Positions 14,620 through 60,750 of a stretch of 64,000 nucleotides of DNA are shown one piece after another. The DNA is from Octopus vulgaris (lineage: Eukaryota), in assembly GCA_951406725.2 (NCBI GenBank), contig OX597825.1, forward strand, positions 67,766,001-67,830,000, given 5' to 3'. Numbering within the stretch: position 1 is the stretch's first letter; every line of letters begins with the position of its first letter. The notes beneath the pieces were generated by a model. It saw only the letters and a list, made by a program, of their open reading frames with translations, ran no database searches and was not told where the DNA came from. Both the position numbers and the translations under genes were made by a program.

Positions 14620-14972
14620 TTCTTTTCTACTTTAAGCACAAGGCCCGAAATTTCGGAGGAGGATAGACAGTCGATTAGATCGACCCCAGTACGCAACTGG
14701 TACTTAATTTATCGACCCCGAAAGGATGAAAGGCATAGTCGACCTCGGCGGAATTTGAACTCAGACCGTAACGGCAGACGAAATATCTGTTTCATTACTA
14801 CCCACAAGGGGCCAAACACAGAGAAGACAAACAAGGACAGACAAACGGATTAAGTCGATTATATCGACCCCAGTGCGTAACTGGTACTTAATTTTGAACT
14901 CAGAACGTAACGGCAGACGAAATACGGCTACGCATTTCGCCCGGCGTGCTAACGTTCTGCCAGCTCGCCGTC
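14620..14972 (-). mobile_element. SINE family B dimer with two different tails
   Basis: Head at 14970, unit with the ccccttgtggg tail, junction at ~14787, second unit with the alternative gggccttgtgc tail. Confidence 0.8.
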
Positions 14973-15619
14973 TTCTAAATTATATTAATTAACAAGTAGG
15001 TGAAGGGGGAAAATTGCAATAAAGCAGCAAGAAATTAATTAAATGGCGCCAGTCAGAAAGTTATACAGTAAATATGAGTCGACCTATTTGAGATAAATGG
15101 AGAATAATCACCTTCGCACGTGACATGCACGTGACACCACCATAACAAACCAAGCTTCAAATGGCCAGCTTAGTGATGCACTGAATATTATCCTGTGGAA
15201 CCTTCTGATGGTGCTTGTCGTCTCCTCTGCCCAATCCTTTGCTGACCTTACTGCTTCCAGAAATAATATTCAGTGTGATAGTACAAAAATGAAGACGAAA
15301 TAGCAGTTAACAGCCATGCAGAAAGAAAAAAAGTCCTAAAGTACAAATGGCCAAAACCAAAATCAATTTTTAAAAATAAATTTTTGATATTTTGTTTAAA
15401 AAAAGCATTTTGAAATTTTTTGTTCAACAAACATAAAAAAAAACAAGTAACCATTTTAAAACCTATTTTAATAAAAAATAAAGAAATACTTGCATTTGAT
15501 AAATTAGTCAACATTGTATTTTTATGTCGAGTTCCATTAATTTACCAAATTTTAACACATTTGATTAATTATTTCCTAATATAATTCGGTCTTAAATTTA
15601 GTGCTTAGCAATCAGATTT

Positions 15620-19028: not shown

Positions 19029-19260
19029 AGGTGGCGAGCTGGCAGAATCGTTAGCACGCCGGGCGAAATGCTTAGCGGTATTTCGTCTGCCGCTACGTTG
19101 TAAGTTCAAATTCCGCCGAGGTCGACTTTGCCTTTCATCCTTTCGGGGTAGATAAATTAAGTACCAGTTACGCACTGGGGGCAATGTAATCGACTTAATA
19201 CCTATATCTGTCTTTGTTTGTCTCCTCTATATTTAGCCCCTTGCTGGCAATAAAGAAATA
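19029..19260 (+). mobile_element. SINE family B monomer
   Basis: Full head and tail; 16-bp TSD ggtatgta(a/g)caaaata at 19013 and 19261. Confidence 0.92.
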
Positions 19261-19582
19261 GGTATGTAGCAAAATATGCGTATACAAGTTTTCTGTTTTT
19301 ACTGGAATGCTCCACCAGTATTCTTTATTTTTATGGGTGCGGATGCATTCTGGTGCTGGTGTACTTTTGGTATAGCTATTAGGACAATCTTTCCGGCGAA
19401 TGGCATTGTAGATAGTTTAGCCAACAATACCATGTCTCATGGGGAGGTAGTATTTTACGAACATTTTGGATAGCTACTGATAATCTATATGATGTCTGGC
19501 ACAATCGATGTTTTCTGTTACGATATAGAATTCTAGAGTCATCCATATCTCCCTCGTTGTCCAAATATTTAGTAGACATCTG

Positions 19583-21769: not shown

Positions 21770-22172
21770 TTATTTCTTTATTGCCCTCAAGGGGCTAAAC
21801 ACAGAGGGGACGAACAATGACAGACATAGGTATTAAGTCGATTACATCGACTCCAGTGCGTAACTGGTACTTAATTTATCGACCCCGAAAGGATGAAAGG
21901 CAAAATTTGAACTCAGAACGTAACGGCAGACGAAATACCTATTTCTTTACTACCCATAAGGGGCTAAACACAGAGAGGACAAACAAGGACAGACAAACGG
22001 ATTAAGTTGATTATATCGACCCCAGTGCGTAACTGGTACTTATTTAATCGACCTCGAAAGGATGAAAGGCAAAGTCGACCTCGGCGGAATTTGAACTCAG
22101 GAATGTAAAGACAGACGAAATACCAGCTAAGCATTTCGCCCGGCGTACTAACGTTTCTGCCAGCTCGCCGCC
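21770..22172 (-). mobile_element. SINE family B dimer
   Basis: Head at 22172, junction gacgaaatacc|tatttc at ~21940; flanking repeat acacgtattta(t). Confidence 0.88.
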
Positions 22173-23099: not shown

Positions 23100-23515
23100 T
23101 TTGCGTTGGACCACGGTCACGGTCACATCGATTTTTCCCTGTGCCATAAGGCTTAATTCCCAACACGCCAGCTAAATTCAATTTGTCTCCAGTCGAAAGA
23201 CGCCTATTGTTATGTCCTGTTATTATTATTGTTGGGTTTTTTTGTATTATTTATGTATTTATATTCGTCTAACGTCGTCCGTTTTTCCGTCCTTGTTTCG
23301 TATACATTCGATCCTTTTTCCAAGGAATCTAATGCTCTTAGCTTAGTTTTTCCTTGGGGCTGGCCAGATTGGCGCAATCTTAAGATTAATTAGCCGAAAT
23401 TGCGAGGATGATCCGGTCCTTGACTGGAGATTAAAGGATTCGAATGACCCGTCCGTGTTTTTTGTATCGTCTATCTGGATGTTTTGCGTTCTTGTCCCAT
23501 TTTGTATTTTTATTG
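23100..23515 (+). mobile_element. Unclassified dispersed repeat, family X
   Basis: ccaaggaatctaatgctcttagcttagtttttccttggggctggccagattgg...ttcgaatgacccgtc...gttcttgtcccattttgta is also at 31207-31490 (+) and 61838-62290 (-). Confidence 0.8.
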
Positions 23516-24262
23516 TATGTATGTTGGTACATATGCGCGTGTTTGTATAAAAGGTAGTCATCTGACAGAGTCGTTAGTGTCCAATAGAATACATTGCTAC
23601 GTTTGTTTCAGCTCTCTTCGTTCCGAGATCTAATCCCGTCGGCGTCAAACTATATTTTCTTCCTTTCGGAGTCAATATATAGAGTACTAGCCCAGTATTG
23701 GTGCAACCGTTTCTCAAGAATAATTTTAATGCTTGCTCATAGCAAGGCATATACCTTATTTTCTAATGAATAGAGAGAAATCGTAGAAATATAAGCTGCA
23801 AATCTAACATCCAATTTACCTGTTAATGCAAGAATACAAATTCAAATAGAATTAAGGTATCTAATATATTGGGTTTCCGTTATTCCGATACCCAGCAAAT
23901 TGGAGCATTTCAACAAAATGCTTTCTTTGAATTGAATTTGGCATTTCTGTATATCACAAAAGACGATGTTGTGCGTTGTGTTGTTTCCTTGAATATTACA
24001 CTAGACGAGGAAAGATATTTTACTATGGAACAATCGGCGAAGCCTCGTACTCAAAAATCGTTCGTTTGTTAATTAGCTTAATTAGATTTAATTAATGTTC
24101 CTTTATAGCAATTCTTTTGCTTTGATTATTCACCTAAAATCGAATATCACATGACATATACGTGGGTGTGTGTGTGTGTCTGTCTGGCTGTGTTTGTTTG
24201 TGCGGGGACGATTTCAATTACCTGACTTACAACCGATATTTAGAACTCTACGTGGATCCTTG

Positions 24263-24555
24263 TGGAGGCGCAAAGGCCCAGTGGTTCGGGCAGCGGACTC
24301 ACGGTCGGAGGATCGCGGTTTCGATTCTCAGACCGGGCGTTGTGTGTGTTTATTGAGCGAAAATACCTAAAGCTCCACAAGGATCCGGCAGGGGGTGGTG
24401 GCGACCCCTGCTGTACTCTTTCGCCCCAACTTTCTCAGTAACGCTGCGATGGACCTGCGTCCCGTCCAGCTGGAGTGGGGAAAACATACACCACAGAAAC
24501 CGGGAAACCGGTCCCATGAGCCTGGCTAGGCTTGAAAAGGGCTAAAGAAAAGAAG
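24263..24555 (+). mobile_element. SINE family C
   Basis: tRNA-like head plus ggaaaccgg...atgagcctggctaggcttgaaaaggg tail. Confidence 0.88.
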
Positions 24556-24933
24556 ACGTGCAACCTTATAGATCGAAAGGAATAACTGAAAAAAAAATTG
24601 GTGCATATTATAGCTCAAGTTTCCTTTCACTGGTTCCTACGATTTGAAAGATCTTAGAGCATATAAAAAAACCTGGAGAGTTGTTTTTTTAATTATTTAA
24701 TTACGTTATCTTACATTAAAGCTTACGACCGAATTGTGCAATCCAAGCCAAGTAACCTCTCTATGTCTCACTTCGTCAGAAATTCGTATTAATTTCTGAT
24801 TGAATGAAGTAAATCCATGTCATATGTCTTTGATACATGACAAAGATTTACCAATCATACGAATCTTACGCATAAGATAAACAAACTATCATAACATTGA
24901 CAATATTAAAATGCTAATGATAATCTTAGGATA

Positions 24934-25716
24934 GGCGGCGAGCTGGCAGAAACGTTAGCACGCCGGGCGAAATGCTTAGCGGTATTTCGTCTACCGTTAC
25001 GTTCTGGGTTCAAATTCCGCTGAGGTCGACTTTGCCTTTCATCCTTTCGGGGTCGATAAATTAAGTACCAGTTACGCACTGGGGTCGATATAATCGACTT
25101 AATCCGTTTGTCTGTCCTTGTTTGTCCTCTCTATGTTTAGCCCCTTGTGGGTAGTAAAGAAATAGGTATTTCGTCTGCCGCTACGTTCTGAGTTCAAATT
25201 CCGCCGAGGTCGACTTTGCCTTTCATCCTTTCGGGGTCGATAAATTAAGTACCAGTTATGCACTGGAGTCGATGTAATCGACTTAATCCCTTTGTCTGTC
25301 CTTGTTTGTCCCCTCTATGTTTAGCCCCTTGTGGGTAGTAAAGAAATAGGTATTTCGTCTGCCGCTAAGTTCTGAGTTCAAATTCCGCCGAGGTCGACTT
25401 TGTCTTTCATCCTTTCGGGGTCGATAAATTAAGTACCAGTTATGCACTGGGGTCGATGTAATCGACTTAATCCCTTTGTCTGTCCTTGTTTGTCCCCTCT
25501 ATGTTTAGCCCCTTGTGGGTAGTAAAGAAATAGGTATTTCGTCTGCCGCTACGTTCTGAGTTCAAATTCCTTCGAGGTCGACTTTGCCTTTCATCCTTTC
25601 GGGGTCGATAAATTAAGTACCAGTTATGCACTGGAGTCGATGTAATCGACTTAATCCCTTTGTCTGTCCTTGTTTGTCCCCTCTATGTTTAGCCCCTTGT
25701 GGGTAGCTAAAAATAA
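24934..25716 (+). mobile_element. SINE family B concatemer: one 47-bp head plus four 184-bp units, single TSD
   Basis: Units start at 24981, 25165, 25349 and 25533; TSD gataatcttagga at 24919-24931 and 25717-25729. Confidence 0.93.
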
Positions 25717-26383
25717 GATAATCTTAGGAATTCTGTAACGTAGACACAAGGTTTAGTTGCGATGGAAAGGTGTCGGCGACTGAACCTTCCTGAATATTGC
25801 AATATTACCGACTGCAAAATATATTTGACACCGGTTAGATTAGATCAGAAAATGTGGGAAACCGAGATTAACACTGAAAAGCATTTGATTTGGCGTTTAA
25901 ATTATGTTAAGCCTAATAGCATATGTACCAAGATTGGTGCATTCGTTTATTTTTTCTTTTAGCAGATTCAATTATTGAACTGCGACCATGCTCGGCACTT
26001 CCTTTGAAAATTTTACTCAATTATAACCAGTTCAGTATTTTATCTGAGTTATTTCATCGTTTTCTAGAGAAATAATGTAAATTAGGCTAAATATTTCTTA
26101 CGTTGTTTCATTTCATCGAAGAATCACTTTACAGAGTGAATTTTATCGTGACACTAACACGCTGGAGGATGCTTTGTCACCTGCAAGAACCCTCTCAAAG
26201 TTTTCTCCTTTCTTTCAAGCCAAACGTAACCGACAGTGTAAATAGAAGACAGTGATGAAGAAAGGCGTGAAGGAAGAGAATATATAAGGATGAATTCGAT
26301 AAGAAAATCAGAGTGACAGTGTGATAAGAGAGGGGATAATTAGACCTGTCAGTTGCTGGTAAGAAGATTCAATACGAAAGATC

Positions 26384-27364: not shown

Positions 27365-27914
27365 ACCTTTCTCTTTATAAATGTCCTAAAAATTCCAAAC
27401 AGCTTTGGTTTTGTAGTCTCATCTTATTTAACATATACACGCCCACACAAGACCCACATCGTATTATTGTCGAACCGAGAGTCTAACTACGGCCCTCTCG
27501 TAGCACTTACATAGCCTTACCTGCCATCTTGGGTCTTCTGGATACCAATATCTCTCATATATGTGTGTGTGTGTGTGCGTGTGTATGTATGTATGTATGT
27601 ATGTATGTATGTATGTATGTATGTATGTATGTATGTATGTATAGTCAAATCGAACATTAAAAATAACAAATAACAAAACAACAAGAGCATACATATGGAA
27701 TGTATTAGCGTGCGGCACGGTAAATGTGGGGGAAAGAGTGTGTTTTTTACGTTTCGTCAGAGAGAGGAGAAACGAAAGGTTTAGAGAAGGAAAAGTCCAA
27801 GATAAACACGCATCTGGTTACATGGTGGAAGTGAACTTAGCGTCGGTTTTGACAATGAGCATCATTTTGACAATGTTTTTATGATGGAATATTATATTAT
27901 GATGCTAGTTGCAA

Positions 27915-28340
27915 GGCGGCGAGCTGGCAGAAACATTAGCACATTGGGCGAAATGCTTAGCAGTATTTCGTCTGCCGTTACGTTCTGAGTTCAAATTCCG
28001 CTGAGGTCGTCCTTACTTTCGTCCTTTCGGGGTCTATAAATGAAGTACCAGTTACGCACCGGGGTCGATGTAATCGACTTAATCCCTTTGTCTGTCCTTA
28101 TTTGTCCCCTCTATGTTTAGCCCCTTGTGGGCAATAAAGAAATAAAAAAAACATTAGCATGTTGGGCGAAACGCTTAGTGGTATTTCTTTACGTTCTGAG
28201 TTCAAATTCTACCGAGGTCGACTTTGCCTTTCATCCTTTCGGTGACGCTAAATCAAGTACCAGTTGTGTACTGATTTCGATCTAATCGTCTAGCCTCCTG
28301 CCCCAAAATTCCGGCTCTTGTGCCTAGAATAGAAAAGATT
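27915..28340 (+). mobile_element. Young SINE B followed by (or nested in) an older B copy
   Basis: Full copy ends ...aaagaaata, then sequence resumes at aaacattagca within the head and ends with the alternative tail. Confidence 0.8.
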
Positions 28341-29544
28341 ATAATGTTTGTGGCGGAGTATTACGCATACAGCCGGGATGTGGCTGTGTTACAAAAGGGT
28401 TTTATCTTTAAATTACTTGTGCAAGCAACCGACGTTTCCATGCTGTTTTCGTTTATTAAATTTCCTTTACAAAACTTGAATTTGTCCAGAACTATGCCAG
28501 ATAGAACTTATACAAAATGCCAGGCGGTGGGATGGAACTTTGGACTTCAGGATTGCGATGCAAAAGTCTTAACAATTTATAACCATACATATATCCACAA
28601 GCAATTAAGAAATGTAGATATTTTTAGAGAATGTTTTTGTCATTTTAATCTTCTTTTTTTTTTTTTTGTTTTATTGAACACCATTATAGAATAATATTTG
28701 CTTCGATTTTCAATATCAAGCGTCTAATTTGTAGATTTTCCTTTTCTTGGAGGAGCGAATTATTATTTAAAATGCGATAGCTAATTACGTAATTATTAAT
28801 TATGTTATGTAATTACGCATTTCAAATCCTTTGAATATTATATAATTTTATTAAAATATAGTTAAGACTACAACTTATATTATCACGAATCTTTTGAATG
28901 AGAGTGTCTGTGTTTGTTTGTTTTTTTTCTGTATTTTTGCGGGGGTTTTTTTTATTCTCATCTCTGCCGAATGGAAATTAAATGTCATTCCCACATCAAA
29001 CAACATTTTGTCAGTCAGTCGATTTTTTTTTCTATTGCTTCAGCAAAAGAAAGAAATAAGAGTGTTTGTTTTGACCGATAATGGGTTTCGGTAGTGACAA
29101 TTCTAGAGAAATTTGTAACTAATAGCTTTACTCCTCAATCAACATTATTGCAGACATCGTAAATAGTCTTGTATAAAGCATTTCATTCTATTCAAAGACA
29201 GAAGAATCTATTAATCTTTATTTATTTAGTTTGGGTTGTTTCTTTAGTAGCATTATCGAATTCTATAGTCGAAGCGGCGAAATATGCAAGGGCTTCGCTG
29301 TCAAAGAACGATTTTCAATTTTAGATGTGCTGAATGAAAACATTCTCAATTATGCCATAAATCTATAGATTCAGAAAGCCAGTACTAAAGATGACAAACA
29401 AAGAAACCCACGGACTCAATCTACTGAATTATTCAATAAGGTGACTTTTGCTCGAGAATGTAATTAATAAGCTACTGCAGTTTATCGACGTCCTCCGGTA
29501 AATACTAACTACGAAACCTCTTTACTCGATAATATTATTTTCAG

Positions 29545-30312
29545 GTGTTGACATAAGGCCAGCATGTACGGAGAAGCGAGTAAGTCGATTACATCGACTC
29601 CAGTGTTCAACTGGTATTTATTTTATCGACACCGAAAGGATAAAAGGCAAAGTCGACCCATCTAGGCCGAATTTGAACTCAGAACTTAAAGACGGACAAA
29701 ATGCCACTAAGCATTTTATCCATGCTAACAATTTCTTATTTCTTTATTGCCCACAAGGGGCTAAACATAGAGGGGACAAACGAGGACAGACAAAGGGATT
29801 AAGTCGATTACATCGACTCCAGTCCGTACCCCGAAGGGATGAAAGGCAAAGTCGACCTCGGCGGAATTTGAACTCAGAACGTAACAGCAGACGAAATACC
29901 TATTTCTTTACTACCCACAAGGGGCTAAACACAGAGGGAGCAAACAAGGACAGACAAACGGATTAAGTCGATTACATAGACCCCAGTGCGTAACTGATAC
30001 TTATTTAATCGACCCCGAAAGGATGAAAAGCAACGTCGATCTCGGCGGAAATTGAACTCAGAACGTTGCGGCAGACGAAATACCTATTTCTTTACTACTC
30101 ACAAGGGGCCAAACACAGAGAGGACAAACAAGGACAGACAAACGGATTAAGTCGATTAAATCGACCCCAGTGGGTAACTGGTACTTAATTTATCGACCCC
30201 GAAAGGATGAAAGGCAAAGTCGACCTCGGCGGAATTTGAACTCAGAACGTAAAGACAGAAGAATCACCGCTAAGAATTTCGCCCGGCGTGCTAACGTTTC
30301 TGCCAGCTCGCC
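29545..30312 (-). mobile_element. SINE B trimer joined to an older B copy
   Basis: Head at 30312; gacgaaatacc|tatttc junctions at ~30084 and ~29900; older copy at 29545-29733. Confidence 0.85.
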
Positions 30313-42044: not shown

Positions 42045-42630
42045 ATGCTTAGCGGTATTTCGTTTGCCGCTACGTTCTGAGTCCAAATTCCGCCGAGGTC
42101 GACTTTTCCTTTCATCCTTTCGGGGTCGATGAATTAAGTACCAGTTGCTTGCATACTGGGGTAGATCTAATTGTCTGGTCCCCTTCTCCAAAATTTTTGG
42201 GCCTTGGTTTCAAATTTCAGCACAAGGCTAGCAGTTACGGGGTGGGTGCTAGTCGATCAAATCGACCCCAATGTTCATCTGGTACTTATTTCATCGACTC
42301 CGATATGATGAAAGGTAAAGTCGGCCTCGGCGGAATTTGAACTCGGAACGTAACGGCAGACGGAATGCCTGTTTCTTTACTACCCACAAGGGGCTAAACA
42401 CAGAGAGGACAAACAAGGATAGACAAACGGATTAAGTCGATTATATCGACCCCAGTGCGTAATTGGTACTTATTTAATCGACCCCGAAAGGATGAAAGGT
42501 AAAGTTGACCTCGGTGGAATTTGAATTCAGAACGTAGCGACAGACGAAATACCGCTAAGCATTTCTCCTGGCGTGCTGACGTTTCTGCCAGCCCACCACC
42601 GTGCCAATGATTCTACCAGCTCGCCGCCTT
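42045..42630. mobile_element. SINE B cluster: + copy (42045-42210) tail-to-tail with a - dimer (42210-42630)
   Basis: Family B blocks in both orientations; junction cagacggaatgcc|tgtttc at ~42370. Confidence 0.8.
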
Positions 42631-46148: not shown

Positions 46149-46530
46149 AGGCAGCGAACTGGCAGAAACGATAGCACGCCGGGCGAAATGCGTAGCCGCA
46201 TTTCAAATTCCGCCGAGGTCGACTTTGCCTTTCGTCATTTCGGGGTCGATAAATTAAGTACCAGTTACGCGCTGGGGTCGATGTAATCGACTTAATCCGT
46301 TTGTCTGTCCTTGTTTGTCCTCTCTGTGTTTAGCCCCTTGTGGGTAGTAAAGAAATAGGTATTTCATCTCTCTTTATGTTCTGAGTTCAAATTCGGCCAA
46401 GGTCGACTTTGCCTTTCATCCTCATGAAGTCGGAGAAATAAGTACCAGTTACGCAATGAGGTCGATGTGATCGACTATCCCCCTCCCCACAAAGTCCAGG
46501 CCTTGTGCCTATCGTAGAAAGGATTATTTC
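46149..46530 (+). mobile_element. SINE B dimer with two different tails
   Basis: Head plus unit, junction aaagaaata|ggtatttc at ~46357, then a unit with the alternative tail. Confidence 0.85.
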
Positions 46531-59629: not shown

Positions 59630-60750
59630 ACGATTTCAAATTTTAGCACAAGATCTGAAATTTTAGAGGAAGGGTTGAAACGATTACATCGACTCCCTTG
59701 ATTAAGTGTACTTATTTCATCGACCCCCAAATAGATAAAAGGCAAAGTCAGCTTCGGTGGAATTTGAAAAGAAAGAGCCAGAAGATATACTCTGAGCATT
59801 TTATCCGACGCGCTAACGATTCTAAAACCTCGCCGCATTAGGCGAGATGACTGATAATGATAATAATTTCAAATTTTTCCCCAAGGGCAGCAATTGTAGG
59901 GGAGGAGATAACATCCACCCCAGTCTTCAACTAGTAATTATTTTATCGACCCCGAAAGAATGAAAGGCAAAGTCGACCTCGGCAGAATTTGAACTCAGAA
60001 CAGAGCGACAGACGAGATTGTTTGTTCCTTCTCAATCCCTGCCTGGCTCATAGGGCCGGTTTCCCGGTTTCCTTCGCGTATAGGTTCCCCACTTGGACAG
60101 AACGCCGGTCAGTCGCAGATGAGTTGCAAGATGCAGGAGAAAAGAGTGAGAGAAAGTTGTGGCGAAAGAGTCAGCAGAAGTTCGCCATTACCTTCTGCCG
60201 GAGCCGCGTGGAGCTTAGGTGTTTCGCTCATAAACACACACATCGCCCGGTCTGAGATTCGATCCCACGATCCCTCGACTGCGAGTCAACTGCTCTAACC
60301 ACAAGGCCATGTGCCTCCACGACGGGCGAAATACCTATTTCTTTATTGCCCACAAGGGGCTAAACACAGAAGGGACAAACAAGGACAGACAAAGAGATTA
60401 AGTCGATTAGATCGACCCCAGTGCGTAACTGGTACTTATTTAATCGACCCCGAAAGGCTGAAAGGCAAAGACGACTTCGGCGGAATTTGAACTCAGAACG
60501 TAACGGCAGATGAAATACCTATTTCTTTACCACCCACAAGGGGCTAAACACAGAGAGGACAAACAAGAACAGACAAAAGGATTAAGTCGATTATATCGAC
60601 CCCAGTGCGTAACTGGTACTTATCTAATCGACCCCGAAAGGATGATAGGCAAAGTCGACCTCGGCGGAATTTGAACTCAGAGCGTAACGGCTGACGAAAT
60701 ACCACTAAGCATTTCTCCCGGCGTGCTAACGAATCTGCCAGCTCGCCACC
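59630..60750 (-). mobile_element. SINE B multimer and older copies, with a nested SINE C (60018-60320)
   Basis: Head at ~60748; gaaatacc|tatttc junctions at ~60520 and ~60335; family C copy inserted next to a junction; older monomer at 59630-59837. Confidence 0.85.

Follow-up and report, generated by a model that had tools for sequence, protein, structure and literature searches.

Organization of the array

The 64,000-nucleotide stretch of Octopus vulgaris contig OX597825.1 analysed here (positions 67,766,001 to 67,830,000, forward strand; referred to as the window) contains, at 24919–25729, a tandem array of a short interspersed element (SINE). The array consists of one SINE head followed by four 184-bp units, with a perfect 13-bp target-site duplication (TSD) around the whole (Table 1). 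Tandem Repeats Finder reported a period of 184, 4.0 copies, 96% matches and 0 indels for it, in agreement with the architecture described in the first-pass annotation of this DNA. In the family numbering used herein Q1 is window position 24932, and the unit start that the annotation had placed at position 48–50 is Q50. The annotation had ascribed the array to rolling-circle copying of a circularised RNA. On balance, we favour instead the insertion of new copies at Q50 of older copies of the same family, likely through RNA pairing, with DNA duplication likely to have followed.

The exact period noted in the first-pass annotation stands, but the four units are not equally alike. Units 2–4 differ from one another at 2, 3 and 5 of 174 sites, while unit 1 is set apart from them by 9–11 differences. 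Unrelated units of matching haplotype differ at a median of 12 sites, and none of 15 such pairs differs at five or fewer.

The SINE family and its probable partner

Members of the family share a head (Q2–49) and a core (Q50–168) and carry alternative tails, termed A (the tail of the 24919 array), B1, B2 and C. Tail A occurs in T-type (GTAG or GTAA) and C-type (GCAA or GCAG) variants. The elements are short (monomer 233 bp), interspersed and present in at least 100 copies, as in the SINEBase definition of a SINE, and have both TSDs, mostly of 15–17 bp, and a 3' end related to that of a long interspersed element (LINE). The head may be transfer RNA (tRNA)-related, judging from A- and B-box-like motifs recognised by eye; ARAGORN and Rfam gave no tRNA match. 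The octopus tRNA-derived SINEs OK, OR1 and OR2 (Ohshima and Okada 1994) and 'Twintail', a name from the 2015 octopus genome paper, are presumably the same or overlapping families, with head and core in common and alternative tails.

The last 42–47 bases of tail A are 76–83% like the 3' end of another repeat (10 loci). Upstream of this shared end, at L266, one 205-aa stretch matches zf-RVT (PF13966; E=1.9e-8); reverse transcriptase (RT) and endonuclease domains were not seen in the repeat. Since tail A shares its end with a zf-RVT-bearing repeat, the mobilising partner is probably a LINE of the L1/Tx1 type. The 3' ends of this L1/Tx1-like LINE, which terminate in (CTAT)n, lie at L266:2-1018, L032, L098, L103, L120, L128, L163, L174, L179 and L042, and at L103 two of them stand in tandem about 540 bases apart.

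Family-wide figures come from a random 1 Mb (100 evenly spaced segments of 10 kb each), 60 segments surrounding listed tails or junctions on contig 1, 130 pattern-picked loci, which form a biased sample, and 20 short loci; unit numbers of arrays rest on these samples and are not a genome-wide count. Of the A elements in the random 1 Mb, 43 had a head; 28 of these were monomers, 14 dimers and one a trimer, and the commonest multimer was an A unit followed by a B1 unit (8 of 15).

A recurrent junction at Q50

The junction GAAATAGGTATTTC, formed by the tail end and the first bases from Q50, occurs exactly at 25159, 25343 and 25527 within the array and at 21932, 29893, 30077, 46352, 60328 and 60512 elsewhere in the window. 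The latter had been read as six independent loci; the exact repeats are genuine, but as the pair at 29900/30084 lies in one array and that at 60335/60520 in another, they represent four other loci. Variants were also seen at 14780 (two mismatches) and 42370. The junctions near 46357, 14787 and 42370 are likewise real, but the next unit ends in a different tail (B2, B1 and C, respectively), so that these are heterodimers and not 184-bp repeats. In total, the window yielded 20 strand-matches to the junction versus 1.2 expected. Across the genome (2.80 Gb) the 22-mer junction has 30,336 exact matches, and its reversed control has none. Among 59 A tails in the random 1 Mb, 33 end the element, 18 are followed by sequence resuming at Q50, four by Q17 and four by sequence from elsewhere. 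The tail pattern has 105,503 matches genome-wide, and 49 of the first 100 listed resume at Q50 when counted by eye. The breakpoint is non-random and has been re-made independently, as the first-pass annotation had proposed, and a single multimeric master is disfavoured.

Tails of the B type, too, can be joined with short microhomology to Q17 or Q52–53 of other copies (L121, L062, L056), and judging from these joins older subfamilies may have used the same insertion route.

New copies are nested in older ones

A elements have inserted at Q50 of copies from all four subfamilies (A, B1, B2 and C), where they are flanked by TSDs of 14–19 bp that start at Q50. Genome-wide there are 127 cases in which a new head begins within 10 bases after an old Q50–60 fragment (a few of these in tandem), compared to 11 for a Q92 control. 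Twenty nested loci picked by their 5' side alone were examined, as were 10 Q92 control loci. On the 3' side, the sequence picks up again at Q50 in 16 of the 20 nested loci and at Q17 in one, a further locus is divergent and two yielded no tail; none of the 10 controls resumes at Q92, and six resume at Q50. Private variants are duplicated on both sides of the insertion at L293, L300, L302 and L303. Nine of 149 arrays, a set enriched for C-type targets, have an old head immediately upstream, and in eight of the nine it ends at Q56–69.

Insertions into unique DNA point to the same preference. The GGTA that often follows the tail falls inside the TSD, and the upstream TSD copy starts with GGT in 11 of 31 targets (9 of 21 for T-type tails, p=3e-13; background 1.0%). 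Since the upstream copy cannot be templated by the RNA and yet starts with GGT, the element appears to pick DNA targets that resemble Q50.

At 7 of the 20 nested loci (L298, L299, L301, L303, L306, L307, L309) the new head follows an existing tail–Q50 junction fragment, so that junctions inside arrays must have been hit again. At L282, L283, L286, L287, L288 and L289 the old copy runs to about Q105–110, a new head follows and the 3' side resumes at Q50; these loci could represent unusually long target duplications or chimeric 5' ends. Tandem repeats of 64–65 bp made up of the head plus Q50–65 were also seen (G000:C10:17996023-17996501, 8 copies; G000:C1:194001252-194001347) and apparently derive from a two-headed intermediate.

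The 3' units of heterotypic arrays are older

In 28 of 32 pairs with B1 the 3' unit is the older of the two (it is the younger in three; p=3.5e-5), as it is in 7 of 8 with B2 or C. Measured against its own consensus, the 3' unit diverges by 0.056 and the 5' unit by 0.034, with the 3' unit the more divergent in 35 pairs and the 5' unit in 8, of 45. The divergence of the last unit tracks its family (B1 0.076, B2 0.107, C 0.147; monomers 0.084, 0.139 and 0.164, respectively). The 3' halves are star-like and carry private mutations, with the nearest neighbour at least 8% away among 46 B1 halves and at least 15% away among 21 C halves. As the halves differ in age and the 3' halves are star-like, these elements do not correspond to true dimers of the Alu type, in which a master amplifies both halves together.

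These data bear on the possibility that one or a few dimeric masters (head-A-B1) moved whole and that the remaining forms arose by internal priming, recombination and unequal crossover. Such a history would account for A-B1 being the commonest multimer, for the excess of B1 described below and for the T-type tail of the unit before the junction in 139 of 149 cases, and nested copies transcribed as dimers must sometimes move whole. It sits poorly, however, with halves of different age, with B1 and C halves that form no clusters, and with at least four partner subfamilies, two junction sites and nested intermediates, and we consider it improbable. A single 'Twintail' dimer master was dropped after the age asymmetry and star-like 3' halves had been found.

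Rolling-circle copying of the array

Under the mechanism proposed in the first-pass annotation, the tail would pair with Q50–57, a 184-nt circle would form and rolling-circle reverse transcription would write the array. The exact period and the near-identity of units 2–4 agree with this, the 24919 locus taken alone is compatible with repeated copying of one template, and a headless linear unit pairs its own ends with a probability of 0.50. The junction is indeed complementary to itself; the head's own 11-bp hairpin, however, already pairs with the TATTTC involved. In monomer RNA with a 0–7 nt extension, Q52–57 pairs with the head hairpin at a probability of 0.68–1.00 and with the tail at 0.000, so that the postulated tail pairing failed in the head-bearing RNA. 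Among 150 first units, 23 carry a compensatory 45G/50C variant of the hairpin, as do 17 among 92 monomers. This variant, about one copy in six, keeps the hairpin and changes the target site; 50A is commoner in monomers (24 of 92) than in first units (19 of 150) and could be tied to neither model.

No ribozyme was found: the hammerhead core CTGANGA is absent from both strands, and an Rfam search gave no ribozyme or other match better than E=4.6. Arrays end in B1, B2 or C units that are older than the units before them, and a one-unit circle cannot yield such ends. A rolling-circle element should also have all units of an array copied from one template, and this does not hold here. Among adjacent A-unit pairs, 76 of 115 share no rare allele and 17 share at least two (versus 0.3% of random pairs), and by our reading a rare allele runs through every unit in only 2 of 19 arrays that have at least three A units. 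Where private mutations are shared, the sharing is often staggered: units 1–2 of L012 share 3' alleles and units 2–3 a 5' allele, with similar patterns at L180 and L003, as an in-register DNA duplication begun mid-unit would leave. The further argument that slippage would not reuse one breakpoint fails as well, since in-register duplication copies the junction wherever the duplication starts. We regard rolling-circle copying as highly improbable.

An RNA guide or the endonuclease

The two variants of tail A differ in their preferred site. The tail before the junction is T-type in 90 of 100 Q50 junctions and C-type in 9 of 11 Q17 junctions (p=8e-7). Genome-wide, the Q17 junction has 2,436 exact matches, with a C-type tail in 86 of the first 100 listed (counted by eye), and two-headed Q17 forms have 12. 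In the random 1 Mb, 52 of 1,514 GGTAT sites lie at Q50, compared to 25 of 26 sites with an 11-nt match, and the preference therefore needs a match longer than a loose endonuclease motif. A C is present at Q52 in 23 of 34 C-type monomers but in 5 of 100 listed junctions, and at L294 and L300 the upstream copy has C at Q52 where the junction has T. The + strand of the array contains no TTTT, which makes read-through transcription plausible; the consensus has seven internal TTT runs. Pairing of RNA with its target during target-primed reverse transcription (TPRT) is, in the portion of the literature account available to us, established or proposed for several LINE clades, which provides a precedent at 3' junctions (PMC6007223). 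Together, we infer from these data that an RNA guide, rather than the endonuclease, would set the insertion site.

Alternatively, the same nested insertion could have its site set, with no RNA guide, by the LINE endonuclease or by local DNA structure, such as the hairpin foot or chromatin bound by RNA polymerase III (Pol III). In favour of this, a loose GGTAT/TATAT motif is common to the unique-DNA targets of both tail types, the partner's zf-RVT domain is of the L1/Tx1 type, many Tx1 elements are target-specific, and Q50 is at the foot of an 11-bp inverted repeat. An enzyme acting alone would nevertheless have to direct two tail types with the same LINE-type tail to Q50 and Q17, respectively, would have to favour Q50 in 18 of 59 tails when so few GGTAT sites lie there, and leaves the replacement of C by T at L294 and L300 unaccounted for. 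This alternative seems to us unlikely.

Proposed origin of single-headed arrays

In the majority of arrays a single head is present and one TSD encloses all the units. Under nested insertion, a source copy lying at Q50 of a host copy would be transcribed past its tail, and its RNA would carry a guide, GGUAUUUCGUC..., just behind the LINE-type tail. This read-through RNA could pair with the Q50 DNA of an older copy and prime reverse transcription by the probable L1/Tx1-type LINE, and every insertion at Q50 would yield another read-through source copy. In most insertions the end of the complementary DNA (cDNA) would anneal to the homologous old head and replace it, so that the old TSD would enclose one head and a 184-bp unit more than before. 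Further units would then be added by duplications, which may begin at any point of a unit and copy the junction passively, as is shown for several arrays and as probably happened in the array at 24919. For that array, the most likely history is that a T-type element, probably the present unit 1, inserted at Q50 of a resident copy that was flanked by the 13-bp TSD, and that two in-register duplications followed.

Possible traces of a replaced copy are consistent with this route. C-type head alleles are enriched before C arrays (38A in 7 of 21 versus 9 of 91, p=0.012), corresponding to about one third of such heads, and the TSDs of 27 heterotypic arrays (mismatch 0.079) are more diverged than 50 A-type ones (0.054; p=0.03) and resemble those of 26 B/C monomers (0.089). 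A stricter version, in which the old head and Q50–65 are always kept, was dropped, as first units before C carry A-type alleles at Q61–65 in most of 21 arrays.

The single head and single TSD could also reflect the fixed template jump that the first-pass annotation had offered as an alternative, with the RT passing during one insertion from Q50 of one SINE RNA to another's tail; the homology used would be direct (GGUAUUU) and not a self-complementarity. Dimer units that are mostly independent (52 of 72 share no rare allele) and heads that are mostly new would fit such a jump. It would not, however, give TSDs starting at Q50, upstream copies starting with GGT, old heads before C arrays or older TSDs, and reverse transcription would have to begin on RNAs that are 15% diverged and carry another tail; we therefore hold this explanation, too, to be improbable.

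Several observations weigh against nested insertion as outlined above. Two-headed intermediates are rare (127 exact matches versus 30,336 for the junction), and it is for this reason that the route to the single-headed majority is one we infer. A-A pairs have no age gradient (36 versus 29 of 79, p=0.24). It is chiefly B1 arrays that give the TSD age signal; the TSDs of C arrays (0.061, n=7) and of B2 arrays (0.067, n=5) are not clearly old, and TSDs were found in only about a third of elements. TSD variants mismatch at L294, L298 and L307; TATAT targets are common in unique DNA, where the contrast between targets of T-type and C-type tails is not significant (p=0.077). The heads in front of B1 units are diverged by 0.059, like A monomers, and look entirely new, so that near-complete head replacement is required. 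B1 is hit most: in the random 1 Mb, nine B1 units follow Q50 and two follow Q17 versus six with their own head, compared to 6 versus 45 for A and 1 versus 34 for C. This excess could stem from a main source RNA with a long B1-type extension, or equally from a dimer subfamily. Finally, contigs of four related organisms over 23100–26350 gave no ortholog in the pre-insertion state. Their orthologous flanks are about 2% diverged and paralogues swamped the reading of unit number; in related organisms B and C the contigs span about 25690 into the 3' flank, so the 3' end of the element is present there.

Taking these points into account, we give about even chances to the fuller proposal that the family is a self-perpetuating, RNA-guided homing SINE, in which each copy nested at Q50 or Q17 would transcribe host sequence as a guide that directs the next copy to the same position of any related copy, and the cDNA would overwrite the old head by homology.

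Relation to known systems

Arrays of the form TSD-(SINE)n-TSD in the bivalve Scapharca broughtonii are similar in that, in the passages covered, the first unit has a full tRNA head, later units are cut at one head position and a single TSD is present (PMC11481361). They differ in that inner units are also 3'-truncated, 64 long arrays are reported and unequal recombination is proposed; those passages describe no nested targeting, age asymmetry or guide. Squamate sSats, according to the part of the work consulted, likewise have tandem units smaller than the parent SINE, lineage-fixed boundaries, growth at the DNA level and unit numbers that vary between orthologs (PMC10702118). They comprise hundreds of subtelomeric units, whereas the octopus arrays are dispersed, mostly of 2–3 units and often heterotypic, with a junction that would come from retrotransposition. 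An sSat has at least four middle monomers and forms long, homogenised arrays; the 24919 array has two middle units, and the longest run among 87 in about 2 Mb sampled is five A units. As far as these excerpts go, the bivalve arrays and the squamate sSats are both attributed to recombination (PMC11481361, PMC10702118).

With respect to TPRT, the portion of PMC6007223 consulted describes RNA 3' sequence matching the TSD start for the I factor, R1Bm, R2Ol, L1, L2, CR1, RTE and elephant SINEs, with the TSD start fixed by the 3' repeat in the elephant SINEs; as in the octopus, subfamilies that do not share the same end go to different targets. The animal microhomologies given there span 1–2 bases, or the target is ribosomal DNA, whereas the octopus SINE prefers its own family and, in our proposal, would inherit its guide from the host copy. 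Non-LTR retrozymes are comparable as short tandem arrays of a non-autonomous retroelement but, in the part of that report seen, contain hammerhead ribozymes and are proposed to roll (bioRxiv 10.64898/2026.07.22.740005); neither was found for the octopus array.

The SINE family itself is probably already known, and its targeting mechanism was not found in print. In the sections consulted, PMC4758252, PMC4824008 and PMC3531059 merely cite the 1994 octopus SINEs. A repeat annotation of Octopus vulgaris lists, in its main text, 893 active SINE families that are unclassified, alongside 13 L1-Tx1 families, and the words nested and dimer are not used there (PMC13282606). A literature search, with most subscription papers beyond reach, turned up no SINE described as inserting at a fixed base within copies of its own family.

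If correct, RNA-guided nested insertion would be a genome-scale natural case of a passenger RNA, rather than the LINE protein, setting the insertion site. The two tail types would amount to a built-in guide swap, making the role of RNA–DNA pairing in TPRT testable. It would also provide an origin for dimeric SINEs and for SINE-derived tandem repeats with fixed boundaries, and young SINEs would multiply on neutral landing pads while overwriting the promoters of rivals. A homing SINE would be a natural analogue of prime editing, with tens of thousands of events involving a third to half of the family's tails. Repeat annotation will mis-date and over-split such composites, and the TSDs date the host copy and not the visible head.

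Other features of the window

Table 1. Parts of the 24919–25729 array and related elements in the window.
Feature	Position	Strand	Remarks
5' TSD, 13 bp, GATAATCTTAGGA	24919–24931	+	matches 25717–25729 at 13/13; followed by one extra T at 24932
SINE head, Q2–49	24933–24980	+	common to subfamilies A, B1, B2 and C
A-box-like motif in head	~24944–24955	+	by eye against Pol III consensus
11-bp head hairpin	24966–24991	+	centroid fold; Q50 (24981) is the 3' foot of the loop
Unit 1, Q50–233	24981–25164	+	GTAG-type haplotype TATAGTATG; 9–11 differences from units 2–4
B-box-like motif in unit 1	25008–25017	+	by eye
LINE-related 3' segment of unit 1	25121–25162	+	also in units 2–4; 76–83% like 3' end of repeat at 10 loci
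First junction, tail end plus Q50–57	25159–25172	+	recurs at 25343–25356 and 25527–25540
Unit 2, likely local duplicate	25165–25348	+	2–3 differences from units 3 and 4
Unit 3, likely local duplicate	25349–25532	+	near-identical to units 2 and 4
Unit 4, likely original resident body	25533–25716	+	last 12 bases altered
3' TSD, 13 bp, GATAATCTTAGGA	25717–25729	+	same 13 bp as 24919–24931
Heterodimer A-[50]B1	14620–14973	-	3' end approximate
Monomer of same family	19029–19276	+	16-bp TSD starting GGTAT
Second junction class	27914–28340 (+), 29540–29736 (-)		C-type tail joined to Q17–19 of a B1 or C copy
A element nested in old C-type copy	42200–42630	-	outer ends approximate; old head Q2–30 upstream; C body resumes at Q50
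Heterodimer A-[50]B2	46149–46525	+	3' end approximate

High-copy repeats lie beside the array at 23100–23535 and 24081–24625, where contig depth is very high. On the - strand at 60270–60335, about 16 bases of an old copy follow the last junction, and then comes the apparent 5' end of a different tRNA-like repeat. Outside the window, arrays with a period of 174–175 bp, whose unit is about 10 bases shorter, were seen at G000:C1:2477512-2477686, 3313614-3313788 and 3763194-3763543.
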